Shown here piece after piece: positions 6,638-55,962 of a DNA stretch of 55,962 bases. The translations under genes and the position numbers were made by a program. Position 1 is the first letter of the stretch; each line of letters opens with the position of its first letter. Below the pieces are notes generated by a model that was not told the DNA's origin, did not search any database, and saw only the letters and a list, made by a program, of their open reading frames with translations. The stretch comes from a virus. The stretch is from IMG/VR virus record IMGVR_UViG_3300017971_000057, one strand, 5' to 3'.

Positions 6638-6832
6638 ATGCCCAATAACCTGATCTCATTCGCCGTCCAGACCGAGGCCGGTCCGGTGCGCTTCTTTGAG
6701 GCCAACCGGGTGCGCGTGCGTCGCGGGCGGCTCGTATTCCTGGTCGGCCTGTGGCGCGTGGTGGGCATCATCGAGCGCGGGCACTGGCTGCGCGTGATGG
6801 CCGGCATCGCACCGGAGGACATCGGACAATGA
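6638..6832 (+). CDS. Hypothetical small protein
   Basis: ORF track; stop overlaps the portal ATG 6829 (ATGA). Confidence 0.4.
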   Translation: MPNNLISFAVQTEAGPVRFFEANRVRVRRGRLVFLVGLWRVVGIIERGHWLRVMAGIAPEDIGQ

Positions 6833-9708: not shown

Positions 9709-9720
9709 AGGGGAGCAGCA

Positions 9721-10095
9721 ATGAACAGACGAGATGCACTTAGAGCCATTGGAGTACTGGCAGCAGGCATTCTTGTACCAAAGGCAAGAGATGCTGACAA
9801 GGACGCTCGTATTGCAGAGCTTGAGGTGATGCTAGATACGGAAGAGGAACGGGCCGACGGTTGGGAACAGGGCTATATGGACCTGCTGACCGACTATCGA
9901 AAACTTGAATGCTGGTATCACGAAAAGTGCCACGAGCTAGAGATACAGCGCAGACAGAATGCCTTTCCTAACCGCGAGCCTTTGCCACCAGGCCCTAACA
10001 AGATCGTCTGGTCTATCGGTGACGAGTTCACAGACGGGCATACAATTGGCACGCTTGCCGAGCTTTTGGGCGGGGATCTAAAAGGGGAGCAATGA
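9721..10095 (+). CDS. Hypothetical protein with a twin-arginine-like signal peptide
   Basis: MNRRDALRAIGVLAAGILVPKA N-terminus; GGGGAGCAGCA upstream of the ATG. Confidence 0.55.
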   Translation: MNRRDALRAIGVLAAGILVPKARDADKDARIAELEVMLDTEEERADGWEQGYMDLLTDYRKLECWYHEKCHELEIQRRQNAFPNREPLPPGPNKIVWSIGDEFTDGHTIGTLAELLGGDLKGEQ

Positions 10096-10169
10096 CCGAC
10101 GACGCACTAGACACTCAACCCTATAGAGGGGAGTGAGCGCCTTTTTTTGTTGTCTACTGGAGAGATACT

Positions 10170-10652
10170 ATGGCACTACCCATATTTTCGCCCCACCCAC
10201 GCGGGTGGACCAACCCGGTTACGCTCCGGGCCTCTGCGGCTCTGCCTGCCGCTGGCGCGTGGGACGCTGCGCCGACGGAATCCTTTACCAGTGGGGCGGA
10301 CCACTTGACGCTCTCATTCACGTACACGCGCGGAGCCGCCGGGGGTGCATTCGACTGGCAGCTAGAGACCTCCATCTATGCCGTTGCCGCCAACGTCCCG
10401 GCGGGCGCGTCCGAATGGGTGACCGAGGCGATCTACTCGGCGGGGGCCGTCGCCGCGGGGGCGGACACACAGAGCCAGGTGCAGCGCGAGTATCAGACCT
10501 ACGGCAGCCAGGGCGCGGCGGCGGAGGATTTCGTCTATGGCCCGCTGGCCCTGAATGGCACGATTGAGCGCGTGCGCATCCGGGCCAGAGAATCGGCGGA
10601 CGGGGAAGTCGGCACGCCCGGCACGCTCTCCATTGTAGCGGAGCTATTCTAA
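10170..10652 (+). CDS. Hypothetical structural protein
   Basis: ORF track; co-oriented and tightly packed. Confidence 0.5.
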   Translation: MALPIFSPHPRGWTNPVTLRASAALPAAGAWDAAPTESFTSGADHLTLSFTYTRGAAGGAFDWQLETSIYAVAANVPAGASEWVTEAIYSAGAVAAGADTQSQVQREYQTYGSQGAAAEDFVYGPLALNGTIERVRIRARESADGEVGTPGTLSIVAELF

Positions 10653-10653
10653 A

Positions 10654-11145
10654 ATGAAACAAGGACTGACTGATCAAGCAACGCAGCCGGTTGGGGGCGT
10701 CGTTCTAGCGGATCCTTTGCCGGTGATTGACGAGTGGCGTATCTCGCTGGTTGCGGACGAGACAACCAACGACTCCGACAAGGTGATCTACACCGTTCCC
10801 GCTGACACAGAGGCTCAAGTGCTCTGGATCTGGAACGAGTTGACCACGACGGCGACGGTAGGTGACCGGCAGCTTGTGATCGAGATCCAGGACTCGGCAA
10901 ACGACGTGATCGGCCAGTTCCGCGCCGGTACAGTGCAAGCCGCGTCCCTTACCCGCCACTACCAGTTTGCGGCCAGCATGGCTGACCTGCAAGCCTTCCG
11001 CGATACAGATTATCTCATGACCCCCCTGCCACCCGGTCTGATTCTCCAAGAAGGCGATCAGGTGCGTGTTTTCGACAACAATGCTGTGGACGCGGCGGCA
11101 GATGATCTTGTGTGCCAGATGCAGCTAGCGACCAGGAGTATTTAG
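10654..11145 (+). CDS. Hypothetical structural protein (~160 aa beta-rich)
   Basis: ORF track. Confidence 0.5.
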   Translation: MKQGLTDQATQPVGGVVLADPLPVIDEWRISLVADETTNDSDKVIYTVPADTEAQVLWIWNELTTTATVGDRQLVIEIQDSANDVIGQFRAGTVQAASLTRHYQFAASMADLQAFRDTDYLMTPLPPGLILQEGDQVRVFDNNAVDAAADDLVCQMQLATRSI

Positions 11146-14100: not shown

Positions 14101-14934
14101 GACGAGGGTATGTATCTGGCTGGTTCTTTGGCAGTTGTCGGGGGATATTATAGCCAGGGAGTATGGTGCTATTGTGATGGATCTGCACGGATTGCGAGTG
14201 GGAGCCCTTCATCAGCCCGCGCAGTACGCCACAACGTAGCTACTACTGGACCCACAATAAATTCTGGTACAGGTCAGGTGTGGACGCCACTTTTAGGTGT
14301 GTTCCGAGCCAAAAATACGGACTATTGGCCGCTCGTGTTTGCTAGCAGTGGTGCAGCAGGAGATCGTTTTTCGGATGATACTTGGCTGTTTGCGTGCGAC
14401 TCTGTAACCCTCACCGTCACCCCGGCCTCCCAAGTCAATTCGCTAGAGACTCCAGCGGCGGGTAACCCTGGCATCCGCGTGGATGGGCGAGATAGCTGCA
14501 CGGTTCCAGCGGCAACACACAAAATGCTTGCGACAAGCGGCGGCGTTCGATTTCGTGTCACCCCGCGTCACAGCATCGCCAATTCAGAAGCGTTTGGGCA
14601 GGATTGGGAAGTTCTTTTTGACCTGACCGAGGATGCCAACAACTATGTGATGCTCTACCGCGACAACGCGGCTGGAGGCACGCTCTACCTCGAAGTGGAC
14701 CAAGCCGGAGCAGGGCCTTGGGGGGATTCGGCTACCCCGGCATGGGCGGCTGACACGGAGGCAAGCATAGACGTGATCAACTATGGCGGCTTGATCCGCG
14801 TGCTGTTTGACGGTTTGCCCCTCTTGGAGATCGGCGGCCTGACTGGCTTTGCAACCGACTTTACTGCCGCCGCCTACTTTGGCAGTGAGGACACGCCCAA
14901 CTACCAGGCGGACGCGGTTATCTCGCCGCCATAG
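11146..14934 (+). CDS. 1262-aa fibre/receptor-binding-like protein with about three LamG (concanavalin-A-like lectin) modules
   Basis: Repeated pattern FNGTSTYIGCGS...AEMTVAGWVRLD...KWHYFAFHYD... and LEFDGAATILNG...FTAEGYFRHD...HHWMLTY... Confidence 0.75.
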   Translation: MGFGIHGAGILPVSRLGGSLGPYIYNFDLGDITFSDDMAVRAGAKAFDTAPIFQGKWDGTGTPDAVSFSRGTLLGNQTQYFYSNFDPYQGSISFWITLEWAGNDGIEHNILYASANYRLYKSTGNALVLIAGGQTYTGPSTAAWTAGTTYHLVASWDAKNTLDGTNYARWSVNDAHTYSVTTQPTASAPGATVGVGSTITPTLAADAQISGLFVWRRVLYDGTYGVGATFDESGLVDEIAAVYAAGAGADPAQVVGGSWDCTFCLPTDQSEGALATTGQAWSHPYGSELIDVPFLDDGGLPGTDYAVEFNGTSTYIGCGSDASIDDIPSGAEMTVAGWVRLDSTAASTFTIIHKGDALTTGWVVYVGVDGQLYGYVPLATDNMQCTVAVDIGDGKWHYFAFHYDDTTKTGTISVDGVWGASDTGIGAYQSDAASDLEMGRLTALSSFWDGGIAWIEISDNDRHTAGTDFIPPRAPYADGNTVEYWLMDEGTGATAAASVTSPNNDGTITNGSWSAIWAIVGTPVIPQSLEFDGAATILNGTSGANIDNLPSGANGFTAEGYFRHDTAGESNGGIFWTKTGWYMQFASATTIRVFIDYDTTDINETFSWTPDGRQHHWMLTYNENGVDRFARVYRDGILVHTTAASVGNYVADAAQTLYIGNNAGATATMDGAIGWQALSDNVRTGATFIANSRVAPRANDANMHLRYAMTDGAGTAVADTSGNAYNGTITMGSGAWNNTPDLKTDEPGAMIYEQGYNVGSDGANDGIYIPTTLTAATDYVIRVPLQYSPNAWPRITLYDVTAVGSIVDFDAPPMTAVHDGGAGAAAFTSTGEVYPASLIGGTIYNVTDGSSGTITAVGGTNQDTITAALAGGGSNDWQVGEQAYIVPPDGWVFNEPIVARTSANTAYEVRITNRNSDGVITVHQAEVLESLLDNGDHESLNGGFPGAPELITGWTNYLLDAGDTEPEATVVHSGAQSLEWNASASDEGMYLAGSLAVVGGYYSQGVWCYCDGSARIASGSPSSARAVRHNVATTGPTINSGTGQVWTPLLGVFRAKNTDYWPLVFASSGAAGDRFSDDTWLFACDSVTLTVTPASQVNSLETPAAGNPGIRVDGRDSCTVPAATHKMLATSGGVRFRVTPRHSIANSEAFGQDWEVLFDLTEDANNYVMLYRDNAAGGTLYLEVDQAGAGPWGDSATPAWAADTEASIDVINYGGLIRVLFDGLPLLEIGGLTGFATDFTAAAYFGSEDTPNYQADAVISPP

Positions 14935-14943
14935 GAGTACAAG

Positions 14944-15318
14944 ATGGCCTACCAATTCAGATACCGGCTGCAATCGCAGCCCACTCCGCGCAATGACGGA
15001 TCGGGGTGCGTCGATCACGACATTTTTGCAGAGGCATCCAGCGACGGAGAGAACTGGATCACGGTCCCCGGTCGGCACAAGACGATCAGCGTGCCCGCTG
15101 TTACGCTACAAGCGGCGCTTGGGGCCGGGACATTTCCACAGATCGCGGCAGCGTACAAGAACGCTCTGGCGGCGAACCTGGCCTACCAGCCGATCCCGGT
15201 TGCGGGCTGGACCATTGCTCAACTCGCGGTCTTGATGGAAGCGAACGACGCCGCAATCGCAGCAGCGGAAGGCGTGGACGGTCTCGGCCTGACCTACCCG
15301 GTGCGGTTCGTGATATGA
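14944..15318 (+). CDS. Hypothetical protein
   Basis: ORF track. Confidence 0.5.
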   Translation: MAYQFRYRLQSQPTPRNDGSGCVDHDIFAEASSDGENWITVPGRHKTISVPAVTLQAALGAGTFPQIAAAYKNALAANLAYQPIPVAGWTIAQLAVLMEANDAAIAAAEGVDGLGLTYPVRFVI

Positions 15319-15383
15319 AACGCTGGAAACAGATCGCCATTGCCGAGATCTTGTGGCCCTTGGCGTGGGTGTGGAGTAGATAG
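15315..15383 (+). CDS. Tiny hydrophobic ORF (22 aa, MKRWKQIAIAEILWPLAWVWSR)
   Basis: ATGA overlap with the upstream stop; its TAG directly abuts ATG 15384. Confidence 0.25.
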   Translation: MKRWKQIAIAEILWPLAWVWSR

Positions 15384-17258
15384 ATGCCCTGGCATATCGG
15401 AGATCACGCAGACTGTAACGGGTTCGCAGTCATCAAGGACGGCGATGGATCGCTGGCAGGATGCCACGATACGCGAGACGAGGCCGAGGCACAGATGGCG
15501 GCGCTGTACGCGAGCGAGCCAGAGGCCGCGCAAGAGCAAGAGCCGGGCGGCCCGGAGCGGTGCGTGTGTCCAGAGTGCGGATACAGCGCCGACAAGGAGC
15601 GCGGCGTGCCCTGCCGGTCGGTCGAGTGCCCGGAGTGCGGCGCGATGCTAGTAGCACAAAATGAGGATGATGAGATGGGCGAATTGGCAGAGGCGAAAAT
15701 GAAGGATGGACACGCGCGCGGCGACTTTCTCGTGGTGGGTGACCCGGACGAAACGAGCACATGGCATCTGCCTGTCAAGACGGGCGGCGAGCCGGACCAC
15801 CGCTTGATGGGTGCGGCAAAAGCAGCCCTCACCGTCGGCTACCGGGGCAACGTCTACGAGGGGCCGGACAAGCAGGCCGCGATCCGCGCGCTCAAGGCGA
15901 TGTACGATGCCGAGGATATGGAGTGGGATGACGACGACGTGGCCGAGCTCGACACATCCGGGATGAGCCTGGGCGCGCTGTCCGAACTCGTGCGCGGCGC
16001 GTTCCTGGCGCGATACCAGAAGCGCACTGACGACGAGCCCTATGGCGCCGAGGTCTACTACTGGATGCGTGACATTTTCATGGGGCATCCGACCTTTGGC
16101 GACGCGATGATCGTCGAATGCAAGGGCGCGCTCTACCTCGTGCCGTTCTCCCTGGACGGCGAGCAGGTCGAGTTTATGGAGCCCTGGCAAAAGGTGCGCC
16201 AGACCTACGAGTTGGTAGAGGAGCCGCCCGCCCCGATGGCCGAACCGCCCGCCCCGATGGAGGAGGCCGCCTTGTCCGAGGCCGCGACCGGTCGCGTGAT
16301 CGCCATCGAAGAGGCCGAGACCACGATTGGCCTCGTGCCCCTGACTCTGGACGTGGCGTTGATCGAGCCCGGACCGGGCAACGCCCACGACCGGCACTAC
16401 TACCCGGCGGAGGTGCTCAGGCGCGACGCCAAGGTATTTAAGGGCGGCAAGATGCACGCCACGGACCACCGCGAGACCGAGAAGAACGTCGGGACGTGGG
16501 TCTCGACGATCAAAGCCTGCCCGGTCGGATTCACCGAGTCAGGCGCGCCCATCGCCCGCGTGGTGGTTCACAAAGACTGGTTCGCGCGTGACATTCTCGC
16601 GCTCCAGGCCGAGGGCCTGCTTGAGAAAATGGAGTGTTCGATCATCGGATCGGGCAAGGCCAAAAAGGGCAAGGTCAACGAGGCGGAGTACAACATCGTA
16701 GAGGCGATCACGGAAGGATCGGCAGATTGGGTGACCAAGGCGGGCGCCGGCGGGCACGCGCTGGCGCTGGCTGAATCGGATACGCATACAAACGGAGGCG
16801 AAACGGTGAACGAAAACGAGCACGAGCAGGACCAGGACGTTGAGGTCCAAGAAGCCGAAACCGTGACGCTGCGAGAGGAAAACGCAGACCCGCCCCAAGA
16901 GCCCGAGGACGCGCAGAGCGCCGACGGCGAGCAGGACCAAGCGGACGCGGAAGAGGCCACCCCAGAGGCAGCCTATTCAGCGGAGCGGGTGGGCGAGCTT
17001 CTCGCGGAGTCTGGGCTGGGCGAGGATGCGCGGCGGCTGCTCGACCGCCCCTATGAGAGCGAACAGGCCGTACAGGACGCTATAGCCGAGTTCAAGCGCA
17101 TTCTCAAAAAGGCGTCAGGAAGCGGGCAACCCTTCGCGCAAGGCGAGCCGGGACCCGCGCCAGCAAGACAACCGATCAGCGAGGCCGACCGCCAGGCGCG
17201 CTACAAGAGAATCAAAGAGCGGTACGGCCTGACCTATGACGTGGAGGTGACGGAATGA
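15384..17258 (+). CDS. Putative scaffold / prohead-core protein with N-terminal zinc ribbon and acidic C-terminal half
   Basis: Position upstream of the capsid gene. CPECG...CPECG. Long acidic stretch. In-frame 21-bp tandem duplication at 16224-16260 (EPPAPMA-EPPAPME). Confidence 0.5.
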   Translation: MPWHIGDHADCNGFAVIKDGDGSLAGCHDTRDEAEAQMAALYASEPEAAQEQEPGGPERCVCPECGYSADKERGVPCRSVECPECGAMLVAQNEDDEMGELAEAKMKDGHARGDFLVVGDPDETSTWHLPVKTGGEPDHRLMGAAKAALTVGYRGNVYEGPDKQAAIRALKAMYDAEDMEWDDDDVAELDTSGMSLGALSELVRGAFLARYQKRTDDEPYGAEVYYWMRDIFMGHPTFGDAMIVECKGALYLVPFSLDGEQVEFMEPWQKVRQTYELVEEPPAPMAEPPAPMEEAALSEAATGRVIAIEEAETTIGLVPLTLDVALIEPGPGNAHDRHYYPAEVLRRDAKVFKGGKMHATDHRETEKNVGTWVSTIKACPVGFTESGAPIARVVVHKDWFARDILALQAEGLLEKMECSIIGSGKAKKGKVNEAEYNIVEAITEGSADWVTKAGAGGHALALAESDTHTNGGETVNENEHEQDQDVEVQEAETVTLREENADPPQEPEDAQSADGEQDQADAEEATPEAAYSAERVGELLAESGLGEDARRLLDRPYESEQAVQDAIAEFKRILKKASGSGQPFAQGEPGPAPARQPISEADRQARYKRIKERYGLTYDVEVTE

Positions 17259-17884
17259 CCACTGAGTTTTATGGTGCGACGGCGGGCGAGGACTACGAAC
17301 AGAGTTCCGGACCGCTTGTGATTCGACAGGTGCACGAGTCTGATGTGTGGCCCGTGTACGACAATGCCAACGTGACGACCAAGGACAGCGTGCTCGACGC
17401 CAACGGCAACTACAACGGGGTTCACCCCGTGATCGCCATTGGCGGTCGCACCGCGGCTGATGGCCGGCCGCTCAACCTGACCGGCGTGATCGTGGATGTG
17501 ACGCCTTCGAGTACCCTGGCCGAGAGCCTGGTCCGCGTCAAGATCGCGGACGGGATGATCGTGCGCAACTACGTGGCCAACGTGACGGCCTACGCGGCCA
17601 GCGCGCCGAGCACGTTTGAGACCGCGCCCGTTCCGGGCCAGCCGGTCTATGTGGACGACTCGCAGAGCTTGGGCACGGGCGTCACGCTCTCGATGTCCCC
17701 GCTCAACGATGCCGGCCTGCGCAATCCGGTGGCTGGGCACCTGTTCTATGCGCAGGATGAATACGTCAACGACATGGTGGGCGGTCCCAACGCCGCGACC
17801 ACTTTCGACAGCGCTCTGAGCAACAGCCTCGTGCAGCAGGTCTACGCGGTCATCCTGTCCAACGGCTGGCGAGAGCTGGCGTAA
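17255..17884 (+). CDS. Hypothetical head protein (decoration/auxiliary candidate)
   Basis: Lies between the scaffold-like gene and the capsid gene; ATGA coupling at 17255. Confidence 0.5.
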   Translation: MTTEFYGATAGEDYEQSSGPLVIRQVHESDVWPVYDNANVTTKDSVLDANGNYNGVHPVIAIGGRTAADGRPLNLTGVIVDVTPSSTLAESLVRVKIADGMIVRNYVANVTAYAASAPSTFETAPVPGQPVYVDDSQSLGTGVTLSMSPLNDAGLRNPVAGHLFYAQDEYVNDMVGGPNAATTFDSALSNSLVQQVYAVILSNGWRELA

Positions 17885-17896
17885 AGGAGCAATGAG

Positions 17897-19018
17897 ATGA
17901 GAAAGTTTCTTTCACTCCTTGCGGACATCCGCAAGGCACAACTGAGCGAACGGGGCGCAAGCGGCGAGCGGCTGGGCAAGGTCGATGTTCTCTTCCGAGA
18001 GATGGACCGCCAGCTCGATTGGCGCGAACCGCCTGCTGAGAACGAGCAGCTTGCCGAGACCTTGGTCTCTGCCGACTTTCCCTATGCGTTGGAGGAGTAC
18101 GTCAACCGTGAGATGGTGGCGGGCTATCAGCGCAAGGGCTTTGCTTTTGAGCCGTTGGTCTACAACGATACCCTGAGCAACTTCCTCCCGCATACCCGCT
18201 ACCAGAACCGCTGCGGGTTCGACGACCTGGAATACGTCGGCCAGAAGGGCCAGGCGCGACCGGGTTCCATCCAGGATGCCACCAAGCGCCAGTACCAGGT
18301 CTATCGCTGGGAGAAGCAGATCGATTTCTCCTACGAAGCCCTGGTGAACGACGACCTCGGCTACCTGGAGGACACGGTGCGCCTGATGGGCGAGGCGGCC
18401 CGGCGCACGCTGGAAAAGTTCGTCTCGCGGATGTACACCAACGCCGTGAGCATCGCGGCTTTGACCGCTTTGGGCGTGCTCTACTCGCAGACCGGGCGCT
18501 TGACCACGGCCCGCATCAGCGAGGCGCGGATGGCGTTCAACCAGCGCACCGACGCGTGCTCTGAACCGATCAACGCCCGGATGGATCACCTCGTGATCCA
18601 CAGCGGCCTGGTGGACACGGCGCGGCAGATTCAGGCCAGCGAACTGGTGCCAGAACTGGCGACCAACGCGGCCAACATCGTCCGCCCGTTCAACTGGATC
18701 GAAGACCCGTACATCACGGGCACGGCGCCGAACCTGCCCTGGTGGGCGTTCAGCGTGAGCAACAACATCCGTCCGTTCGTGCTGGCGAGGCTGCAAGGCT
18801 GGACTGGCCCACGCGTGGCGCGCAAGCGCAGCGATATGGAGTTTGTCGGCTCGATGCTGGGCGGTGGGGCCCAAGCGCCCGCGATTATGGGCGACTTTGA
18901 CACCGGCAACGTTGTGCTCAAGGTGGTAGACATCTTCGGGACGTACATCGGTGGCACGGGCAACGGCAACTACTTCGACCTGCGCGGCGGCTACTACAGC
19001 GCCGGCACCGCGCCCTAG
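17897..19018 (+). CDS. Major capsid protein candidate (373 aa)
   Basis: Size and position after the scaffold, with strong GGAGCAATGAGATG start context. The fold was not verifiable by eye. Confidence 0.6.
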   Translation: MRKFLSLLADIRKAQLSERGASGERLGKVDVLFREMDRQLDWREPPAENEQLAETLVSADFPYALEEYVNREMVAGYQRKGFAFEPLVYNDTLSNFLPHTRYQNRCGFDDLEYVGQKGQARPGSIQDATKRQYQVYRWEKQIDFSYEALVNDDLGYLEDTVRLMGEAARRTLEKFVSRMYTNAVSIAALTALGVLYSQTGRLTTARISEARMAFNQRTDACSEPINARMDHLVIHSGLVDTARQIQASELVPELATNAANIVRPFNWIEDPYITGTAPNLPWWAFSVSNNIRPFVLARLQGWTGPRVARKRSDMEFVGSMLGGGAQAPAIMGDFDTGNVVLKVVDIFGTYIGGTGNGNYFDLRGGYYSAGTAP

Positions 19019-19044
19019 AACTGGGCGAGAATAGGGGAGCAAAT

Positions 19045-19443
19045 GTGGCAACGAATAGAGAACTTGAACAACGAGTCCAACAGCTAGAGACGCTCCTGGC
19101 GCGGGCCGGGATCGCGGCGGCGATCGCTCCGAGTGATCAACCAGAGGATCGACCGGACTACATCGCCTTCGGCAGCGAGCAGCACGCGACCTTTCTTGGC
19201 CTCGTGCTTCTGAGCGAGGGTGAAGAGCCGCCACAGGGACAGACACATATCCTGACGGGCAGAGACGGGCAACTGTACTGCCTGGAGGATGAGCTAGGGG
19301 CGATGCGATTTTACCCCGGCCTGTCCCTGGACGAGGTGGCGCCGGTCGTGCTGCGGCAGAAGATCAACTGCCTCGAAGGCGGGCCGCCGTCGATCCCGGC
19401 CAATGCGCCGACCATGTGGACGCCGGATCGGCTGATGGCATAA
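19045..19443 (+). CDS. Hypothetical protein
   Basis: ORF track (GTG start after GGGGAGCAA). Confidence 0.5.
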   Translation: MATNRELEQRVQQLETLLARAGIAAAIAPSDQPEDRPDYIAFGSEQHATFLGLVLLSEGEEPPQGQTHILTGRDGQLYCLEDELGAMRFYPGLSLDEVAPVVLRQKINCLEGGPPSIPANAPTMWTPDRLMA

Positions 19444-19453
19444 GGAGACAACT

Positions 19454-20458
19454 ATGGTTACACTTCCACAGGTGCGTCAAGCGCCCTGGTACCCCGGTCA
19501 GATGGGGGTCTCGGGCAGTGACGTACAACGTGGGTTGAGATGGGAGCCGGCAGGCATCGTGCTGTACGTGGATGAGAACCACCCAGGCGCAAGCGCAACC
19601 GCCGACGGCACCGATCCAGAGCATCCACAGACGACGATCCAGCAGGCGATCACGAACCTGACCAACTTTGCCACGGCCATGAGCTGCTCCCTGGAGGGCT
19701 CGGTGATCGTCGTGGCGGCTGAGAGCACGCCGGCGGAGAGCGTGATCATCCCTGCTACCGCACCGAAAAACTGCACCATCCTGGGCGCGGGCGATGGGAT
19801 CAATTGCCCGGCCTGGACGGCGGCAACGGCAACCGGGGTCGCGCTCACGATCCGCCAGCAGGGCTGGACGGTCGATCACATCCTGTTCCGTGCTGGCGCG
19901 GGCGGGCAGTCGATCAAGCTGGACTGGGTTCCGGGCAGCAGCTATGTCGGGTACAGGACCACGATCCAGAACTGTCATTTCGACGGTCTCTGGCAAGGGC
20001 TGTACGCGATCAACCTGTACGGCGCGCCCTATGACGTGGTGATCCGCAACAACTGGTTCCGCGAGTGGCGCAAGGGCGACACCACGGCCTATGCGATCAT
20101 CTGCACCGACAGCTCGACCGCGAACCCGTATATGTGCAAGATCATCGGCAACTGGTTCGAGGAAAACGAAAACCACATCGGCAGCCTGGGCAACAACAAA
20201 TCGTTCAACGTCTCGCTGTTTCAAGGCAACACGTTCCACGACGGTGTGCTGATCACGGCTACGCTGATGCTCGACTTGCGCGGTGGCACCCAAGGCGAGA
20301 ATACCGTCACGCAAAACATCTTTGGTGGCGACTACTCGAACACCGGCGGCTACTACGCCAACGCGGGCAACCCTGGCAACTGGGTCGGCAACATCTGCGA
20401 GGACGTGGCCGAGGCCGAGGTGGCCGACAACGGGTTCAGCGTCGCGGTCCCGGCATAG
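19454..20458 (+). CDS. Right-handed beta-helix (pectate-lyase-like) protein, paralog 1
   Basis: The N-terminus PWYPGQMGVSGSDVQRGLR...VLYVDENHPGASATADGTDPEHPQTTIQQAI is shared with 21071-22063. N/G-rich repeats. Confidence 0.65.
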   Translation: MVTLPQVRQAPWYPGQMGVSGSDVQRGLRWEPAGIVLYVDENHPGASATADGTDPEHPQTTIQQAITNLTNFATAMSCSLEGSVIVVAAESTPAESVIIPATAPKNCTILGAGDGINCPAWTAATATGVALTIRQQGWTVDHILFRAGAGGQSIKLDWVPGSSYVGYRTTIQNCHFDGLWQGLYAINLYGAPYDVVIRNNWFREWRKGDTTAYAIICTDSSTANPYMCKIIGNWFEENENHIGSLGNNKSFNVSLFQGNTFHDGVLITATLMLDLRGGTQGENTVTQNIFGGDYSNTGGYYANAGNPGNWVGNICEDVAEAEVADNGFSVAVPA

Positions 20459-30467: not shown

Positions 30468-33284
30468 ATGCAAAAAGAAGGCGTAATCCTCGCCGTCGAG
30501 GGCGCAAGCCAATTCATTACGCAAATGAAGGCCGCTGGACAAGCGGTTGACGGATTTGGAAAGGCGGTCGGGGGAAGCGCAAACGCAGCAAAGCTCCAAA
30601 CCTGGGGTGCTTCTCTCGCGACAGTTGGCAGCGCACTCCAAAATCTAACGGGATTGGGCGGCGGAATTGCCCAATTGGGCGGCAAAATGGGCAGCCTCGG
30701 GCAACTCGCCGGGGTTGCGACCAAATATCTAGGTGCTGCTGGCCCAGCCATTGCGGGCGTGGGCGTGGCGGCAGCCGGATCAATCGCGGCTTTGGGTGGG
30801 GCTGCGGTAGGCGTCGCGGCGTTGGGCAAGAAAATGGCCGAGCTCGCACAACAGACCGCGCCAATCCAGGGCTTAGACTTCCAGTTCCGCACGCTGACCC
30901 AAGAGATCGAGGGTGGCAGCGGGGCCATGCTCAGCGCGTTACAACGCTCTTCCAGCGGGATGATTGCCAACCGCGACTTGATGCGCTCCTACAACGACGC
31001 GGCGGCCCTCGTCAATCGACAGTTTGCCGAGCGCTTGCCGGAAGCGCTGGGCCTGCTGGGCAAGGTATCGGCGGCAACCGGCACCGATATGAATTACCTG
31101 CTAAATAGCCTCGTCACCGGCGTGGGGCGTGTGTCCCCGATGATCCTGGATAATCTCAAAATCCAGGTCGGCGTAGCAGAGGCGACCGCTAAGGCGTCTG
31201 AGATGTTCGGCAAAGAGGCCGACCAACTGACCAAGGTTGAACAGCAAACCGCACTCACCGAGCTGGCCCTGGCCAAGCTCGAAGAAAAGTTTGGTGCATT
31301 GCCGGACATCAGCGAGACGGCAGGCGCTCAGATGGCAATGCTACAAGCTAATTTCCAGAACATCAAGGACACGCTGGGCCAGTTCCTCCTACCTGCGTTC
31401 ACCTCGTTCCTGCAAGGCGTCAACGCGCTGACCGGCGCATTCTCAGCGGCGATCAGCGAGGGCGGCGCATTCTACCCGCTCCTGGTCAACCTGGGCGCGG
31501 TGCTCGCCCTGGTCGGCGATGGATTCAGAGACCTGGCAGATCGAGCCGCGCACTGGCTGGGCAACCTGGACGCCGACTGGACGGCGCGAATGGGCGGGAT
31601 GGCTGCGAGCGCGATCCAATGGGGCGCGGACCTCGTGACCAATTTCGCCGTGGGCATCCTGGACGCGGCGAACACCGTCCTGACCTGGGCGATGAACCAG
31701 ATCGGTAACATCCTGTCCTGGTGGCTTGCACCGGGCAGCCCGCCCAAAGTGGCGCCCGACCTCGACAAGTGGGGCATCGCGGCGTTCGAGTCATTTTTGA
31801 AAGGGATGACCGAGGCGGACTTTGGCGTGCTCGAGTCGGTGCAGGGGCCGCTCAAAAAGGCGCTTGAAGGGCCGGCCTTTGCCGACGTGAGCAAGGCGCT
31901 TTCCGGCGCGCTGGCGGGCGGCGACCGGGCCGGGGCGCTCAACATCCTGGCCAAATCCTCCGAGCAGTTCGGAGACGACATCGCGGAATTGGCGCGGCGC
32001 GAGTTTGCCCTGGCCGATGCGACCGACGCCGTGGCCGTGGCAGAGCAAAAGCTGGCCGACGCACAAGAGCGGGCGGTGCGCACCAATCAGCGAGTGAGCG
32101 CCGAGACCGCCAAGTACAACCAGATGTTGCGCGAGGGGGCCAGCGAGCAGGCGTTACAGGCCCAGCTCGCCCGGATCAACGCCGCCGAGGAAGAGGCCAA
32201 CGTGGCGCGCAAAGAGGTGGGCGCCGCCGAGACGGGCGTGGACGCCGCCAAAGAGCAGGTGGACGCGCTCAAAGAACAAGTCGAGTGGCAGCAGCGATTT
32301 CTACAGCAGCTTTTCGGCATTCAAGACGCGCTGACCGAGCAGGAACGGCGGGGCAGCGGAGCAGGCAAGGGGGCTGTGATTCCGGGTCTACCCGAGGGCG
32401 CGCTTCGACCGGCAGCCGGGGGTATCGGCGGGGCGATTGCCCAGGCGATTGAGGACGCCAAGGGGCGGATCAAGACCAGCCTGGGCGGCATCTGGCAGAC
32501 CATCAAAGAAGAGTTTTCCGACAAGTGGGACGCCGCCATCGCAAAACTAGGTGGGACCTGGACCGAGTTCAAGGACACGGTCGGCGAGGCGTGGGACACG
32601 CTCAAGGAAAAGTACCCGTTCTTGCAAAATGTAGAGGATTGGCTCGTTGACAACATTCCGGTAGTCAAACAGATGATTGTCGAGGCGTGGGACCCGCTGA
32701 CAGAATCGCTTGGGGGTCTCTACAGCGAAATCAGTGACAACCTGCTCGGCGTACTGACCGGAGACCAAAGCCTGCTTGAGGCATTCCAGAACGTGCGAGA
32801 CTACATCAAGGACACGTTCATACCCGAGATTTTAGGTGAGGATGGACTAGGCCCAATCTTGCAGTGGTTCAAGGACGAGGTGATCGACCCGCTGGCAACG
32901 GGCATTGACACGATGTACCAAGCGCTCAAAAACTCGGACACATGGCTGGGCAATTTGATCAAGCGAATCGAGGGGATGGGGCCGGGATTCTGGGACAAGA
33001 TCAAGTTCCTGGTCGGCCAATCGCCCTCCCCGCTGGCCATTGGCATCCAGACCGCCGCCGATGCAATGGAGCGAATGGCGCGGGTGAGTATTCCGCAGCT
33101 CCAGGGCGCGATGACGTTTCAGCCGGCAGGGATGGGGTCCTCTTTCCGGCCGGCGGGGAGCGTGACCAACCAGACGGCAAACTCGTTCAGCTTTGACACG
33201 ACGGTGAACAGCGGCATAGACGCGGTGGCATTCGAGGCGATGATCTTGCGCACGGTGCGCAGGGCGCTGGCAGGAGCGGCATAG
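30468..33284 (+). CDS. Tail tape measure protein (938 aa)
   Basis: Gly/Ala-rich hydrophobic N-region, long coiled-coil-like Ala/Glu/Gln-rich stretch, size and position. Confidence 0.85.
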   Translation: MQKEGVILAVEGASQFITQMKAAGQAVDGFGKAVGGSANAAKLQTWGASLATVGSALQNLTGLGGGIAQLGGKMGSLGQLAGVATKYLGAAGPAIAGVGVAAAGSIAALGGAAVGVAALGKKMAELAQQTAPIQGLDFQFRTLTQEIEGGSGAMLSALQRSSSGMIANRDLMRSYNDAAALVNRQFAERLPEALGLLGKVSAATGTDMNYLLNSLVTGVGRVSPMILDNLKIQVGVAEATAKASEMFGKEADQLTKVEQQTALTELALAKLEEKFGALPDISETAGAQMAMLQANFQNIKDTLGQFLLPAFTSFLQGVNALTGAFSAAISEGGAFYPLLVNLGAVLALVGDGFRDLADRAAHWLGNLDADWTARMGGMAASAIQWGADLVTNFAVGILDAANTVLTWAMNQIGNILSWWLAPGSPPKVAPDLDKWGIAAFESFLKGMTEADFGVLESVQGPLKKALEGPAFADVSKALSGALAGGDRAGALNILAKSSEQFGDDIAELARREFALADATDAVAVAEQKLADAQERAVRTNQRVSAETAKYNQMLREGASEQALQAQLARINAAEEEANVARKEVGAAETGVDAAKEQVDALKEQVEWQQRFLQQLFGIQDALTEQERRGSGAGKGAVIPGLPEGALRPAAGGIGGAIAQAIEDAKGRIKTSLGGIWQTIKEEFSDKWDAAIAKLGGTWTEFKDTVGEAWDTLKEKYPFLQNVEDWLVDNIPVVKQMIVEAWDPLTESLGGLYSEISDNLLGVLTGDQSLLEAFQNVRDYIKDTFIPEILGEDGLGPILQWFKDEVIDPLATGIDTMYQALKNSDTWLGNLIKRIEGMGPGFWDKIKFLVGQSPSPLAIGIQTAADAMERMARVSIPQLQGAMTFQPAGMGSSFRPAGSVTNQTANSFSFDTTVNSGIDAVAFEAMILRTVRRALAGAA

Positions 33285-41660: not shown

Positions 41661-42698
41661 CTAGCCGACCAGGCCCTTCTCTGCCTGGTGTTCGACCATA
41701 TAGGCCCATAGATCGGCCCAGGTGGGTTGCGGATCGTTTGACCACAACCGATCTTTCACCTTGGATGCGTGCGCCGGGTTGTCGTAGCCCAGCTCGTCAA
41801 CGGCCCGCTTGAAGAATGTGGTCCAATCGTTCTCCTCTGGCGGGATCAAGAAGGGCGGCAAAACCTCCTCCTCGTCTCGCTTCTCCTCCAGAAATTCATC
41901 CCCCTCGATCAGTTCTCCGTCATAGTCCAGGTCCGGCGGCGGCTCGTCTTGCCCGTCGCCGACGATGATTACATTATCTGGCTCCCGATCCGGCTCAGGC
42001 AACGCGGGCACGTCCTCTTTCGTGCCCAAGAGCAGGCGGACCATTTCGTCCTCTTGCAGCTCCAGGTGCAGTAGGCTTTTCTCGACGGCGGCCCGCTTGC
42101 CCTTGATGGGCACGCCGATCCGCTCGGGTGCCCGCCAGAGCGTAAACGGCTTTTTGATCAGCGGCTCCCACTGCACGAGCTTGGCGCTCAGATTGGCGAT
42201 GTCGTTGATCGAGGTGGTCATCACCAGCACGATCCCGATGTGCCCAGCATACAAAAGTTCGGGCAGGACCACCTTGAGGCGTCCATAGTATCCGCACGGG
42301 CAGTCCGGGCATTTGTTGGCCACGTCCTTGAACTTGAAATCGCACGGCCTGCCGCGCTCGCTGTGGTAGTGCTTGTCGTCCTCGATCCAGTCGATCCAGT
42401 TCTCTCCATCACAACGCAGCTTACACAACCGATTCTGCCCGTATGCCTCGCGGTAGGAGCTAAACACCTGCTCCATCCGTGGAAACGGGAAGTAGACGGT
42501 CAGTCGCTCGGGTTGCTCACCGTAGGCCACCTTGAACGCCTGCGCGATGTCCTGCCGCCCGTTGTCCGGCACAAAGCGGAAATAGTCGAGGTCCGCGCCG
42601 GGCCGGTTGCCCGTCTTGCTGGCCCCTTTGCGCAAGCGCCCGATCTCCTTGAAGCGGGGGTCCACACTGTCTCTGTCTGAAAGTCCCTTGATTGGCAT
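41661..42698 (-). CDS. Conserved-looking early protein (345 aa), Cys-rich core plus acidic linker; possible DNA-binding/recombination function
   Basis: FKEIGRLRKG...LDYFRF, CPDCPCGYYG, acidic DEPPPDLDYDGELIEGDEFLEE. No family could be assigned by eye. Confidence 0.5.
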   Translation of the reverse strand: MPIKGLSDRDSVDPRFKEIGRLRKGASKTGNRPGADLDYFRFVPDNGRQDIAQAFKVAYGEQPERLTVYFPFPRMEQVFSSYREAYGQNRLCKLRCDGENWIDWIEDDKHYHSERGRPCDFKFKDVANKCPDCPCGYYGRLKVVLPELLYAGHIGIVLVMTTSINDIANLSAKLVQWEPLIKKPFTLWRAPERIGVPIKGKRAAVEKSLLHLELQEDEMVRLLLGTKEDVPALPEPDREPDNVIIVGDGQDEPPPDLDYDGELIEGDEFLEEKRDEEEVLPPFLIPPEENDWTTFFKRAVDELGYDNPAHASKVKDRLWSNDPQPTWADLWAYMVEHQAEKGLVG

Positions 42699-47411: not shown

Positions 47412-48682
47412 GGTAGTGTGTCAAGTTCTGTGTAAAAGGGGTCCAGGCTAGGCAGCGGTCTTGGGCATCGATATCCTTCGGAACTTCATACTTCGTACGA
47501 TAGCATAGAACATTAACAAGCAACTGTTTTCGTTTCGGAAGGCCGTCGCCATCTTTTTGGTGCGTCGCTTGACCTCATTGTACAGCCGCTCGATGACGTT
47601 GGTCGTGCGGATCGTCTTCCAGTGCGCCTTGGGAAAGGCGTAGAAGGTCAGGCAAGCCTCCAAATCGCGTTTCAGGCAGGCCACGGCCGACGGGTAGATC
47701 GGTTCGAACTTCTCACAGAAGGCAGCTACCTCTTGGTCGGCCGCTTCACGATTCTTCTGGTAGAAGATCGCCCGCAGCTCCGCTCGCACGGGCTCGCGCT
47801 GCTTGTTGGGTACGTAGCCCAGCACATTATCCATCTTGTGCTTGACACACCGCTGTCGCGGGCTGTCCGGGAACTTGAGCTCCAGGGCATTGATCATGGC
47901 TTGGTTGCCATCGGTGATCCATAATCCGACCGTTTTGACCCCGCGGGTCTTGAGATCCTCCAAGAGATTCTCCCAGGCCGTTTGGTTCTCCCGATCGCCA
48001 ATGGTGAAGCCTAACACCTCTCGTTGGCCGGTGACGTTGATGCCGATCACGGCCAGGATGGGCATCTTGTGACCTTCACCATCGTAGATTACCGTAAAGT
48101 AGGTCCCATCGGCAAAGGCGTATTCGTAGTGCTCTTCGAGTGGTCGCGTCTTCCAGGCCTCATACTCTCCTTCCAGGGTGTGGAACACCCGAGACACGGT
48201 GGACGGGCTGGGCTTGGAGCCTGTCAAGGATTCGACCACCTCGCCGGCCTTGCGGGTGCTGACGCCGCCAACGAACATATCACCGATGGCGTTGTCCAAC
48301 TCGGCCCGGCGGCGCTTGTACTTCTCAAAGACCTGGGTCTGATGTCCATTGCGCGTACGCGGCACCGACAGGTCTTCGAGCAGACCGACTGTCGTATCTA
48401 GATCGCGTGTGTAATATCCATTTCGATAATCGCGCCGCTCAGGTGTGCGCTCGTAGGGCAAGGCCCCGACCAGGCCGCTGACCTCTTCCTCCAGGATCGT
48501 GACCAGCGTCAACCGCACGGCCATACGGATCTGTTCCTGGAGCAAGGACTGGAAATCGTTTTGACTCAACGCTTCAACTGTAGTATTCTTCTGTCTGGGA
48601 GCCATGGTGTCCTCCTTGGTTAGTTTTGCCGCTACCAAGGATACCTGGTTCCCACTTTTTACACAAAAATCAGTATACTACC
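47412..48682 (-). mobile_element. IS256-family insertion sequence (1271 bp) with ~37-bp imperfect terminal inverted repeats
   Basis: Ends GGTAGTGTGTCAAGTTCTGTGTAAAAGGGGTCCAGG and (reverse complement) GGTAGTATACTGATTTTTGTGTAAAAAGTGGGAACCAGG, a single Mutator-type transposase gene, and an 8-bp TSD. Confidence 0.9.
47448..48605 (-). CDS. IS256-family (Mutator-type) transposase
   Basis: Family-typical blocks [62 protein letters not shown] 6 nt upstream of ATG 48605. Confidence 0.9.
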
Positions 48683-50009: not shown

Positions 50010-50228
50010 TTATCTGCGCCTGAATGCCTCTCTGAGCAGGTTCAACAGCCAGGGCACGAACGGGGCCTCTGGCGGCTCTGGCTCGACCTGCGTCCAGCCA
50101 CGCTCGGCGGCCAGGTCGGCTAACGGGATGGTCTGCCCGATGCGCTTTTCGTCGGCGCTGGCCAGGACGTGCGCCGCGCCGTCCTCGACGCGCACGATGG
50201 TGGTTTCGGATAGTCGTACGAGGTTCAT
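50010..50228 (-). CDS. Hypothetical protein
   Basis: ORF track; AAGGAGG upstream. Confidence 0.5.
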   Translation of the reverse strand: MNLVRLSETTIVRVEDGAAHVLASADEKRIGQTIPLADLAAERGWTQVEPEPPEAPFVPWLLNLLREAFRRR

Positions 50229-50578
50229 TGGTCCTCCTTGTGTCTGTCGGTTGAATCATCACCGCCGTTGAGTTGCCAGCCCGTTGCGGCGAGATCGGCG
50301 CGCCTCATTTTTGTCGAGTGCCGCCTGGGCACCCACCCAGAACTACTATATCCGCGCCTTTGTGTGCGCCTTTCGGCTGTGGCTGGGGCCTCCTGTCGTC
50401 CATTCACTTGTAAGACTGTCTGGCGATCGGCTTTTTCGGTCTCCCGCTTGCCTGCGCTGTATCCGGCGCAGTAGTCGCGCATCCGCTCGATGGTGTCCTG
50501 GCCGTAGTCCGGCCCGGCACCGAGAAGGGCATCCGCATAGCCGCGTGCGTACTCGTCGCTGTACTGTCGGTCGCTCAC
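50225..50578 (-). CDS. Hypothetical protein (the C-terminal half is low-complexity and the extent is uncertain)
   Basis: ORF track. Confidence 0.35.
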   Translation of the reverse strand: MSDRQYSDEYARGYADALLGAGPDYGQDTIERMRDYCAGYSAGKRETEKADRQTVLQVNGRQEAPATAERRTQRRGYSSSGWVPRRHSTKMRRADLAATGWQLNGGDDSTDRHKEDQ

Positions 50579-50790
50579 GGGCGGCCTCCATAGCGGGCAT
50601 CCTCGACGGTGGCTCGCTCGCCCTGGGCGCCGTCTAGGGCCTGCTCGGCACGCACCAGCCAGCGGGGGCGGTACAGGTCGCGCAGGTGGGCCGTGGTGCT
50701 GTCGTCCAGATAGGCGATCCGCCCCTCGGTGCGCACCACGCGCACGAGTGTTTTGGATGTGGTCTCATAGTAAGCGACGTTTGCGTCCAT
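50575..50790 (-). CDS. Hypothetical protein (71 aa)
   Basis: ORF track; AAGGAG upstream. Confidence 0.5.
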   Translation of the reverse strand: MDANVAYYETTSKTLVRVVRTEGRIAYLDDSTTAHLRDLYRPRWLVRAEQALDGAQGERATVEDARYGGRP

Positions 50791-50958: not shown

Positions 50959-51237
50959 CTAACCCAAATCTACCTCGCGCACGCGGAACGTGCGCGTGCA
51001 TGCTCCCGCCTCGTCCATCTCTTCCGGGGAGAGATCTTTCCCTCGCTGTTCTGGCCGGAGAAAGGGGAGATCGATAGTGGTTACGCTGGCGGCACAGGAG
51101 GCCAGCGCCAATGGTAGGTGGCCGATAACGTCCTCCCCGCGAATATCGTCTACGGTCGCGTGAACAATCACGCGGCCCTCGATGCCGCGCTGCTTGAGCC
51201 ATTCGATGGCTCCGGCGTGTCTTGAGATAATCAACAT
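50959..51237 (-). CDS. csx16: Csx16-like (Cas_VVA1548 family) small protein
   Basis: 92 aa. MLIISRHAGAIEWLKQRGI...IRGEDVIGHLPLALA...LPFLRPEQRGKDLSPEEMDEAGA...FRV matches the remembered family pattern (RHxGAxEW, GDxVIGxLP, RGxxLSxEE). Confidence 0.6.
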   Translation of the reverse strand: MLIISRHAGAIEWLKQRGIEGRVIVHATVDDIRGEDVIGHLPLALASCAASVTTIDLPFLRPEQRGKDLSPEEMDEAGACTRTFRVREVDLG

Positions 51238-52649: not shown

Positions 52650-52775
52650 TGTATCCTCCGCTCCGTTTTGGTGTCGGCTCCAGCTTGAGCCGCTATGTGG
52701 CCTGCCATCGTCAGCACCGGGCGGCCAGTCCCGGCGGACCGGGCGTATGCCCGGTTTCGGCTACTCGGAGGAGAA

Positions 52776-52853: not shown

Positions 52854-52882
52854 AGTATATCATATTCGGCACACTTTGTCAA
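52854..52882 (-). promoter_or_regulatory. Leftward near-consensus promoter: TTGACA (52882-52877), 17 nt, TGaTATACT (-10 at 52859-52854)
   Basis: Read directly from the reverse complement. Confidence 0.65.
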
Positions 52883-52945: not shown

Positions 52946-52974
52946 TTGACGCAGCCTAGCGGGTGTGATAGAAT
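52946..52974 (+). promoter_or_regulatory. Rightward promoter: TTGACG (52946-52951), 17 nt, TGaTAGAAT (-10 at 52969-52974)
   Basis: Read directly. Confidence 0.65.
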
Positions 52975-53007: not shown

Positions 53008-53316
53008 ATGCAGACTATGGCCGATGGACAGAACGAACAAGATGAACTGATGGATGTGAGAGCTGCTGCGGCTCTACTCAGTGTGACTGGGGGCCGCGTC
53101 CGGCAGCTTGCAGGGAGTGGGCGGCTCGAGGGGCAAAAACTATCTGGGCGTTGGGTGTTCAGGCGCTCGAACGTGGAGCGATTCGCCGCCATTCCACGGC
53201 CTACGGGCCGGCCCAAAGAGAGCGGGGAGGACGAACCGGCTGTGCTGAACGTCACGGCGGGGGACATTCGCGCAGCGCGGGCGGTGCTCAAGCGGGTGAG
53301 TGGGGAGGGGGAATGA
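53008..53316 (+). CDS. Excisionase/MerR-type helix-turn-helix protein (first rightward gene, Cro-like position)
   Basis: LMDVRAAAALLSVTGGRVRQLAGSGRLEGQKLSGRWVFRRSNVERF; AGGAGG upstream. Confidence 0.6.
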   Translation: MQTMADGQNEQDELMDVRAAAALLSVTGGRVRQLAGSGRLEGQKLSGRWVFRRSNVERFAAIPRPTGRPKESGEDEPAVLNVTAGDIRAARAVLKRVSGEGE

Positions 53317-55260: not shown

Positions 55261-55962
55261 ATGATATGCCGGATCTGTGGCAACAGGGCCGTGAAAGGCC
55301 AGCCGTTCGATGAGTGGGTACGCCCCACATTTACGGATTGGGATAAGCTCGTCCCTGGTGACGCCATTTGCTCTGATTGCTTATTTTGGTTTGAGGAGCA
55401 GTCGGAGGAATTGGCGCGGCGAGTAGGGAAGGAAAAGCCGCAACGGATGCGGAATTATAGCCACTTTATTGTTGCGGGAGAGTGGATACCTCTCTCGAAA
55501 GGCGACAAAGGCAGAATGCAAGTTTTGCTACTTGGTGAGCCTTTCCCCGAACTGGCCGCTATCGCAATGAGCGGCCAAAAGCACATCGCGTTTCGGGCGC
55601 AGCGCAACCCACCCGACGCTAAAGCGGGTTGGGTGCAAGTGGAGGAGCAGGCGCTCTACCTGAACCCGGAGGAACTGCGCTCGCTGCTGTGTGCTGTGGA
55701 GGCGTTGTACACGGGATTCAGCAAGTCAGAGATTGAGACGGGCGACTATGCCGGGTATCGTATCCTGAAGTATGGCCTGGAAGAGTGGCAGGCGCTAGAG
55801 ACCGAGGTCGCGCCGCAGCGCGGCAGTCTGCTCTTCGCCCTCGCCCTTTTCCTGGCACAGAAAGGACAGGCGGGTGGACGAAACAAAAGAGCAGGCTATA
55901 GAGCTGTTGGCGATTCTATGGCGGGGGATCCCGGCGGACTACAAGAACCGCTACCGGATGAA
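55261..55962 (+). CDS. csf1: Csf1 (type IV large subunit, zinc-ribbon N-terminus); continues across the circular junction to 219 (265 aa in total)
   Basis: MICRICGN...GDAICSDCLFWF, with CxxC at residues 3-6 and 37-40. No stop before the window end. Lies directly upstream of cas11-csf2-csf3. Confidence 0.7.
   Translation, partial: MICRICGNRAVKGQPFDEWVRPTFTDWDKLVPGDAICSDCLFWFEEQSEELARRVGKEKPQRMRNYSHFIVAGEWIPLSKGDKGRMQVLLLGEPFPELAAIAMSGQKHIAFRAQRNPPDAKAGWVQVEEQALYLNPEELRSLLCAVEALYTGFSKSEIETGDYAGYRILKYGLEEWQALETEVAPQRGSLLFALALFLAQKGQAGGRNKRAGYRAVGDSMAGDPGGLQEPLPDE
55840..55962. repeat. Terminal overlap copy 2 (identical to 1-123)
   Basis: See copy 1. Confidence 0.95.

Follow-up and report, generated by a model that had tools for sequence, protein, structure and literature searches.

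Type III CRISPR immunity has few known inhibitors, and among viral ring nucleases AcrIII-1 alone has been studied well; it acts on cyclic tetra-adenylate (cA4) and is an experimentally demonstrated anti-CRISPR (Acr) (Athukoralage et al. 2020, as cited in later work). Virus-encoded ring nucleases are by now an established class that comprises AcrIII-1, Crn4b, a viral SAVED nuclease and Csx20. On the cellular side, CRISPR-associated Csx16 is a cA4-specific ring nuclease in vitro (Hoikkala et al. 2025, PMC12409355). The assayed protein was metal-independent, fully degraded a 100-fold excess of cA4 to linear products within 1 h in EDTA buffer, and did not cut cyclic tri-adenylate (cA3) or cyclic hexa-adenylate (cA6) even at ten-fold higher enzyme (PMC12409355). 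The same study counted Csx16 in 2 of 28,114 genomes of isolate phages (PMC12409355). Here we describe a Csx16-like gene in the virus record IMGVR_UViG_3300017971_000057 of IMG/VR, a stretch of 55,962 nucleotides (nt) that is referred to as the window throughout. An earlier note, written from the letters of this DNA, had read the gene as a candidate viral ring nuclease directed against type III CRISPR. The computational analysis presented here supports that interpretation in silico and makes the proposed function plausible, and it adds evidence for a distinct, diverse Csx16 subclade that appears to be borne by mobile elements.

The published work also changes two premises of the earlier note. 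Csx16 had been described there as merely proposed to act on cyclic oligoadenylates (cOA), an activity that has since been demonstrated biochemically, and the novelty assumed for a phage-borne copy is reduced by the two phage genomes already counted (PMC12409355). Methanobacterium virus Drs3 (ORF3) and Bacillus phage Shbh1 (gp42) are likely to be the two in question, since no other virus in the INPHARED phage collection has a homologue. A literature search found no published characterisation of a viral Csx16.

The gene is a minus-strand open reading frame (ORF) that runs from ATG to stop and encodes 92 amino acids (aa). Its coordinates and its translation had been given exactly in the earlier note, peptide included, and the strand is here corrected to minus, the plus strand of the same interval having no ORF and being interrupted by stops throughout. 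The ORF starts 84 nt downstream of the preceding gene, and a purine-rich stretch lies upstream of its ATG. Profile searches place the protein in the Csx16/Cas_VVA1548 family, the assignment that the note had made. Pfam PF09652 (Cas_VVA1548) matches with E = 2.3e-17 and 63.4 bits against a gathering score of 25, over profile positions 2-90 of 91. It was the sole family reported when the Pfam scan of the query was opened up to E <= 10; DUF1874, the family of AcrIII-1, was not reported, in line with the note's view that the gene belongs to another family. Three PADLOC Csx16 models match the query (E = 7e-18, 4e-15 and 2e-11), as does the Csx16 portion (positions 386-477 of 478) of the PADLOC CARF-HEPN-Csx16 fusion model PDLC01842 (E = 3e-12). 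Four plasmid proteins annotated as Csx16 by their depositors are 30-44% identical to the query over at least 96% of its length. In PHROGs, no family matching the protein was found.

Conservation of the core was computed on 167 domain sequences taken from the best 150 relatives. The query keeps every column that is conserved in at least 90% of these domains (R6, H7, W13, L14, V37, G39, P42, L45, A46, R65, G66, L69, M74, G78 and A79). The motifs that had been given for the family in the earlier note, namely RHxGAxEW, a central GDxVIGxLPxxLA (GxxVIGxLPxxLA in the domain set) and RGxxLSxEE, prove to be the most conserved columns of the 167 domains, and all three are present in the query. A profile of close homologues, searched against 1.84 billion cluster representatives, returned 2,517 relatives at E <= 1e-3 and 1,189 at E <= 1e-10.

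The structure prediction that the note had suggested, ahead of a comparison with ring nucleases, gave a confident AlphaFold2 (AF2) model (predicted local distance difference test, pLDDT, 95.9; predicted template-modelling score, pTM, 0.82). In this model five beta segments (residues 2-3, 22-23, 35-38, 50-55 and 79-83) alternate with helices, and the predicted fold corresponds to the topology published for Csx16, a derived Rossmann fold of CARF-like type in which helices flank a five-stranded beta-sheet (PMC12409355). Foldseek returned no match at E <= 0.001 for the monomer against PDB and BFVD. The best compact PDB superpositions were with 2j6b (template-modelling score, TM, 0.53) and with the Crn2 domain of 8y7g (TM 0.47), at E about 1-2 and thus not significant, and the low root-mean-square-deviation superpositions with Crn2 and AFV3-109 were taken as weak corroboration only. 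A sequence search of the PDB with the family profile found no Csx16 structure. It returned only designed ankyrin/DARPin proteins, which were rejected as spurious matches to a short G-x-LPLxLAA motif repeated across the ankyrin repeats, the single stretches being individually not significant.

Relatives were located in genomes with narrow peptide patterns, so that the genome and IMG/VR locus counts given here are lower bounds and not estimates of abundance, and the Csx16 ORFs of these loci were extracted from six-frame segments. Close relatives (47-66% identity) lie in unrelated phage, prophage or mobile-element contexts, and a CRISPR array or a member of a cas cluster was found in 0 of these 25 loci (L001-L025). 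Eight IMG/VR viral contigs hold such relatives. The neighbours of Csx16 include single-stranded-DNA-binding protein (SSB), VRR-NUC and terminase genes on one metagenome contig (L001), DUF3310, amidase and sigma-factor genes on two others (L002 and L003), RecT, YqaJ and RusA genes on five more (L005-L009), and DnaB, Ro60/TROVE and TnpB genes on another (L025); on three further short contigs, also free of cas genes, they are small co-directional ORFs. The closest genomic homologue, 57% identical, sits in an integrated element in the region 9533-20241 of CALMPF010000023.1 (L024), from a Planctomycetia metagenome-assembled genome: Csx16 is directly followed by a tRNA gene, a ParB-like gene, a tyrosine integrase gene overlapping a second tRNA gene, and then the host secA. 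The 25 loci have essentially nothing but Csx16 in common with the window, and the gene therefore sits in unrelated backbones.

Distant relatives (30-47% identity; 47 genomic loci from Proteobacteria, methanogens and others) are found in a different setting. Type III CRISPR loci account for 32 of the 47, as flagged by arrays and/or by the PADLOC neighbours Cas10, Cmr3, Cmr4, Cmr5, Cmr6, Cas6, Cas1 and Csx1, and 20 of the 47 adjoin CRISPR arrays; the unflagged loci are mostly short contigs. In a neighbour-joining tree the phage-borne proteins form one clade apart from the type III-linked ones. Members of the phage clade are on average 56% identical to one another and those of the type III clade 47%, and the mean across the two clades is 34%. 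A segment of about 4 residues in the type III clade is absent from the phage-clade consensus. The motifs common to both clades (RH.GA..W, G.V.G.LP..L.A and RG.[DE]L) are all kept in the query. With one hidden Markov model (HMM) built per clade, the phage-clade model outscores the other by more than 20 bits for 146 of 156 representatives (clusters at 50% identity); as the 156 were selected with a phage-type profile, 146 is a lower bound on the diversity of the subfamily and not a proportion of the family. Drs3 groups with CRISPR-linked Csx16 of methanogens and not with the bacterial phage clade, with weak support (25/100), a placement that hints at a separate capture.

Natural fusions offer a view of what the Csx16 domain works with. 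Tandem Csx16-Csx16 proteins of about 190-260 aa make up 11 of the 156 representatives (P0009, P0016, P0094, P0110, P0112, P0116, P0122, P0133, P0134, P0138 and P0147), and for 5 of these 11 the type III-clade HMM gives the higher score of the two clade models. One of them, P0009, models as a compact two-domain pseudo-dimer (pLDDT 90.9, pTM 0.82), for which Foldseek found no match in the PDB at E <= 0.001. The tandem fusions and this predicted structure would fit a dimer formed around a two-fold-symmetric cA4 site. In cellular loci, Csx16 is fused to effectors: three proteins (L031, L033 and L057) consist of a DxTHG/HEPN-type region of about 430 aa followed by a C-terminal Csx16 domain, and another (L072, 10297-11817, plus strand) joins Csx16 to CARF_Card1 and Card1 endonuclease domains. 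Such fusions to cA4-activated effectors (CARF-HEPN, Card1) tie the Csx16 domain to cA4 turnover. In a further protein (L053, 9992-11224, plus strand) the Csx16 domain is N-terminal, and the long region after it contains hydrophobic segments. The 671-aa protein of Allomeiothermus silvanus plasmid pMESIL02 (NC_014214.1, 99-2114; L073, 9001-11016, plus strand), annotated 'CRISPR-associated protein Csx16', carries the domain in its first 85 or so residues and has a long C-terminal part without a clear domain. Its plasmid neighbours are Rad52, ParB, RNase H, TnpB and ankyrin-repeat genes, no cas gene was found within 9 kb upstream of it, and it may be a plasmid-borne counterpart of the phage genes. 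Three apparent long fusions (L039, L046 and L062) were artefacts of read-through and were set aside. About a third of the representatives have N- and C-terminal extensions, but these were ruled out as a recurrent fused domain, 62 of 76 being singletons.

Taken together, the cA4 activity in the literature, the conserved core that the query keeps, its predicted fold, the fusion of the domain to cA4 effectors elsewhere and the viral setting of the gene lead us to consider it fairly probable that the phage Csx16 is a cA4 ring nuclease that disarms type III CRISPR in the manner of AcrIII-1. Under this proposal, the phage would make a small, probably dimeric ring nuclease of the Csx16 family early in infection. 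When the Cas10 subunit of a type III system in the host detected phage RNA and made the second messenger cA4, the phage protein would bind the messenger and cut it to linear products, and the cA4-activated effectors (Csx1/Csm6, Card1/Can2) would then never switch on. The outcome would be a viral anti-type-III-CRISPR enzyme that resembles AcrIII-1 in action and belongs to Csx16 by descent.

The gene lies in a phage replicon, as had been claimed, with large terminase (TerL), portal, HK97-type capsid and tape-measure genes (Table 1). An exact 123-bp direct terminal repeat marks the window as a circularly assembled complete genome, with a unit of about 55.8 kb and 60.9% G+C, of a tailed phage that is uncultured. 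Contigs of 55,896, 55,980 and 38,137 bp from independent samples encode the identical Csx16 protein among the same neighbours, the first two contigs being near-identical to the window, and the same phage genome was recovered from at least 3 samples (source samples JGI 3300017963, ENA ERZ27256783 and ERZ27256798). A megablast of the early region against isolate phages gave no match and hence no cultured relative, and a search for tRNA genes in the window found none. The Planctomycetia prophage homologue described above is a weak clue to the host and the only taxonomic hint for the hosts of the phage-type clade. The protein with BNR/Sortilin-Vps10-type repeats in the tail region may be a receptor-binding or glycan-binding tail component.

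Table 1. Features of the window discussed in the text, with the evidence for each
Feature	Position	Strand	Evidence
Direct terminal repeat, 123 bp	1-123 and 55840-55962		exact repeat
csf1 (Csf1/Cas8), across the circular junction	55261-55962 into 1-219	plus	PADLOC E = 2e-25
cas11 (type IV)	35-409	plus	PADLOC E = 1e-28
csf2 (Csf2/Cas7)	388-1380	plus	PADLOC E = 4e-82
csf3 (Csf3/Cas5)	1367-2056	plus	PADLOC E = 7e-52
CysH-like phosphoadenosine phosphosulfate (PAPS) reductase	2077-2949	plus	Pfam E = 2.8e-19
Large terminase (TerL)	5279-6628		
Portal	6751-8562		
HK97-type capsid	17897-19018		
Tail-region protein with BNR/Sortilin-Vps10-type repeats, 520 aa	27668-29230	plus	
Tape-measure protein	30468-33284		
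Gp3-like recombination-directionality-factor-like protein	41661-42698	minus	
IS256/Mutator-family transposase	47448-48638	minus	Pfam Transposase_mut E = 2e-94
Three small co-directional ORFs downstream of Csx16 (71, 117 and 72 aa)	50010..50790	minus	no family match
Csx16-like gene, candidate viral cA4 ring nuclease	50959..51237	minus	92-aa ORF, ATG to stop
Second operon ORF, pentapeptide-repeat protein, 244 aa	51322..52056	minus	Pfam Pentapeptide E = 8.4e-66
First operon ORF, 137 aa	52236..52649	minus	no match in Pfam, PADLOC or PHROGs
Type II hammerhead ribozyme in the operon 5' leader	52696..52762	minus	Rfam RF02276, 52.9 bits against a gathering threshold of 37
Leftward sigma-70-like promoter, TTGACA-17-TATACT, TG-extended	52854..52882	minus	11/12 consensus matches
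Rightward divergent promoter	52946-52974	plus	10/12 consensus matches
Excisionase-like helix-turn-helix (HTH), first rightward gene	53008-53316	plus	PHROG excisionase/transcriptional regulator E = 1.4e-5

Placement of Csx16 in an early operon, another proposal of the earlier note, can reasonably be inferred from how the region is arranged. Csx16 comes third in a promoter-proximal leftward operon behind a divergent pair of sigma-70-like promoters, in a region where promoter-like sites number 8 against 1.3 expected. The leftward promoter, judged by its match to the consensus, probably drives the operon, and no minus-strand terminator-like site was found between it and Csx16. The divergent promoter and the excisionase-like HTH gene, for an identical copy of which HTH_17 is on record, would together define a control region that the Csx16 operon leaves in the opposite direction. 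The first operon ORF and the three small ORFs downstream of Csx16 are all called as genes on independent contigs of the same phage. Beyond the small ORFs the operon passes an IS256 transposase inserted in the early region, which is present in all recovered copies of the phage, and continues to the replication genes, an HTH_36 protein and a DnaB-type helicase. Near-identical copies of this IS256 element in a bacterial genome could point to a host.

Directly upstream of Csx16 is the pentapeptide-repeat gene that the note had reported. Its PHROG matches are all to families of unknown function, and such a gene is absent beside Csx16 in all other loci compared. Pentapeptide-repeat proteins such as Qnr and MfpA are DNA mimics, and by analogy a counter-defence role is conceivable for this one. 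Between the leftward promoter and the first operon ORF lies a type II hammerhead that covers the full model (1-66 of 66) with its CUGAnGA, GAAA and GUC core intact; self-cleavage is predicted after position 52737, leaving an 88-nt leader with a 5'-OH end. A weaker hammerhead (37.1 bits, at the gathering threshold) occurs in the unrelated phage-like contig L001 at 2073-2140 on the plus strand, 338 nt upstream of the Csx16 gene of that contig and on the same strand. The presence of a hammerhead near Csx16 in 2 of 19 loci scanned may be a coincidence.

No CRISPR array was detected in the window. The earlier note had stated that there is no cas10 and no CARF effector, and this holds at the sensitivity of the searches made: Pfam scans of the large ORFs of the window found neither, and tblastn of the window with Cas10a, Cas10b, Csx1, Cmr3, Cmr4, Cmr6, Cas6 and Cas1 from cellular Csx16 loci gave only short fragments, with a best E of 0.08. 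What went unnoticed is that the phage carries other cas genes, which on profile matches constitute a complete type IV-B effector module starting about 4 kb from Csx16 on the circular map. Its csf1 and cas11 genes share about 185 nt, read in different frames. Earlier work has reported type IV systems from phages and viruses, among them a virus-borne type IV-B whose function is still unknown (PMC10848311). The combination of type IV-B genes with a ring nuclease gene was seen in no other Csx16 locus compared, the flanks of L014-L076 (copies of this phage excluded) holding no type IV-B genes.

Several observations weigh against reading the phage protein as a cA4 ring nuclease deployed early in infection. 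NCBIfam TIGR02620, the Csx16 equivalog, scores 40.8 bits over profile positions 2-92 of 93 (E = 1.9e-10) against a cut-off of 46.35, and PGAP (Prokaryotic Genome Annotation Pipeline) would for this reason not assign the name Csx16 automatically, although Pfam places the query in the family; type III-linked members reach 90-121 bits in Pfam, the query about 60. The split between the phage and type III clades has moderate bootstrap support (57/100), and it is the type III clade, only about 34% identical, that holds the kind of protein assayed. Every fold-search match, for the monomer as for the tandem model, has E > 0.1. The statement that the active site is conserved draws on column conservation, as no catalytic residues of Csx16 defined by mutagenesis were found in the literature. 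Early expression would follow from consensus promoter matches, and the host is presumed to have a cA4-signalling type III system. In addition, the related Csx15 is mainly a cA4 sponge with very slow turnover, and a family name is therefore no guarantee of fast catalysis.

This last point leads to an alternative in which the phage protein binds cA4 tightly with slow or no turnover and acts as a sponge instead of an enzyme. Sequence analysis does not separate binding from catalysis, and the small CARF-like Csx15 showed no ring nuclease activity in first assays before being recognised as a good cA4 sponge and a very slow nuclease. We consider a sponge unlikely, however, as the Csx16 that was assayed cleared its large excess of cA4 within the hour (PMC12409355), nothing of the conserved core, the R-H pair included, is lost from the query, and the authors of the Csx15 paper argue that sponging is poor against the large cOA output of type III systems and report that Csx15 is absent from phages. 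Slightly less probable again is a shift in specificity, by which the phage clade would degrade or bind another cyclic nucleotide (cA3, cA6 or a signal of the type used by cyclic-oligonucleotide-based antiphage signalling systems, CBASS) and counter a defence other than cA4-signalling type III. The divergence between the clades and the missing segment would allow this, and other viral or plasmid ring nucleases such as Crn4b are broader and could reach CBASS signals. The motifs conserved across both clades are nonetheless identical, the assayed Csx16 kept to cA4 even at the higher enzyme concentration (PMC12409355), and the tandem fusions imply a two-fold-symmetric ligand such as cA4 or cA6, and not cA3.

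Two further alternatives concern what the protein is for. It could serve lysogeny, expressed from the prophage as a dampener of the cA4 raised by leaky prophage transcripts and so guarding the lysogen from autoimmunity instead of aiding lytic growth, much as cellular ring nucleases are thought to dampen signalling. The integrated Planctomycetia element, with its integrase, tRNA genes and adjoining secA, is in keeping with such a role, as are the excisionase-like HTH and the Gp3-like recombination directionality factor of the window. No integrase was found among the tested window ORFs or in precomputed Pfam lists, however, and the gene is co-directional with the replication genes (HTH_36, DnaB), an arrangement indicative of lytic or early expression. 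We give this role the same low probability as a shift in specificity, noting that the enzyme would be mechanistically the same and the role thus a variant of the anti-type-III proposal. It is very improbable, finally, that Csx16 serves the type IV-B module about 4 kb away as an accessory, as its name, that of a cas accessory, might suggest, or that it is a functionless passenger captured from a CRISPR locus of the host. Type IV-B lacks Cas10 and hence any known cOA signalling, it lies on the strand opposite to Csx16 in a different transcription unit, and it does not accompany the gene at the other loci compared. A passenger would hardly agree with a clade kept at 56% mean identity with its core intact across unrelated backbones, nor with at least 146 clusters at 50% identity that score more than 20 bits better with the phage-clade model.

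The cA4 ring nuclease directed against type III CRISPR thus remains the reading that we favour, and its distribution has wider implications. All of the closest relatives of the query are carried by phages or other mobile elements with unrelated backbones, and they make up a clade of their own in which the core is intact; this suggests that Csx16-type ring nucleases are a recurrent viral tool, far commoner in metagenomic phages than cultured collections indicate. A bolder view, which we regard as possible but doubtful, is that phage-borne Csx16 is a viral lineage, large and distinct in sequence (146 or more clusters at 50% identity, in unrelated phage, prophage and plasmid backbones), and not a set of sporadic captures. 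It would then be a widespread and unnamed anti-type-III-CRISPR family with a reach comparable to that of AcrIII-1, strongly under-counted in isolate phage databases, and this phage would combine it with an array-less type IV-B module and a self-cleaving leader hammerhead in a counter-CRISPR kit of several layers. An active protein would represent a second family of small, metal-independent viral cA4 nucleases; such an enzyme could serve as an off-switch for type III CRISPR and for tools based on cA4, and could help to infer which uncultured phages face type III hosts.

Among known systems, the CRISPR-associated Csx16 proteins (PF09652 / TIGR02620) are the nearest, being alike in family, in a size of about 90 aa and in core motifs, as well as in the predicted five-stranded alpha/beta fold and its weak resemblance to 2J6B (PMC12409355). 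They differ in that the query is encoded by a phage without type III genes in the window and falls in a separate subclade about 34% identical to theirs. The self-limiting effector fusions (Csx1-Crn2, CARF-HEPN-Csx16 and Csx16-Card1) are a further point of reference; the last two share the Csx16 domain with the phage protein, which is a stand-alone single domain. Among viruses, Drs3 ORF3 and Shbh1 gp42 (35% and 30% identical to the query) are likewise virus-encoded Csx16-family proteins located among small early or accessory genes, the latter about 4 kb from an annotated Ocr-like anti-restriction gene. Shbh1 gp42 lies on a long branch, gives a partial match of 31.5 bits and has an N-terminal extension of about 90 aa. 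Csx20, Crn4b and the viral SAVED ring nuclease are similar in being degraders of cOA that occur in type III loci and on mobile elements and have been read as anti-CRISPRs; the families they come from are unrelated or at most distantly related, and the specificity of Crn4 for cOA is broad. AcrIII-1 / Crn2 (DUF1874) is of a different sequence family from the query, and is alike in the job proposed here, that of a small, dimeric viral destroyer of cA4, with a weak structural resemblance between the two.

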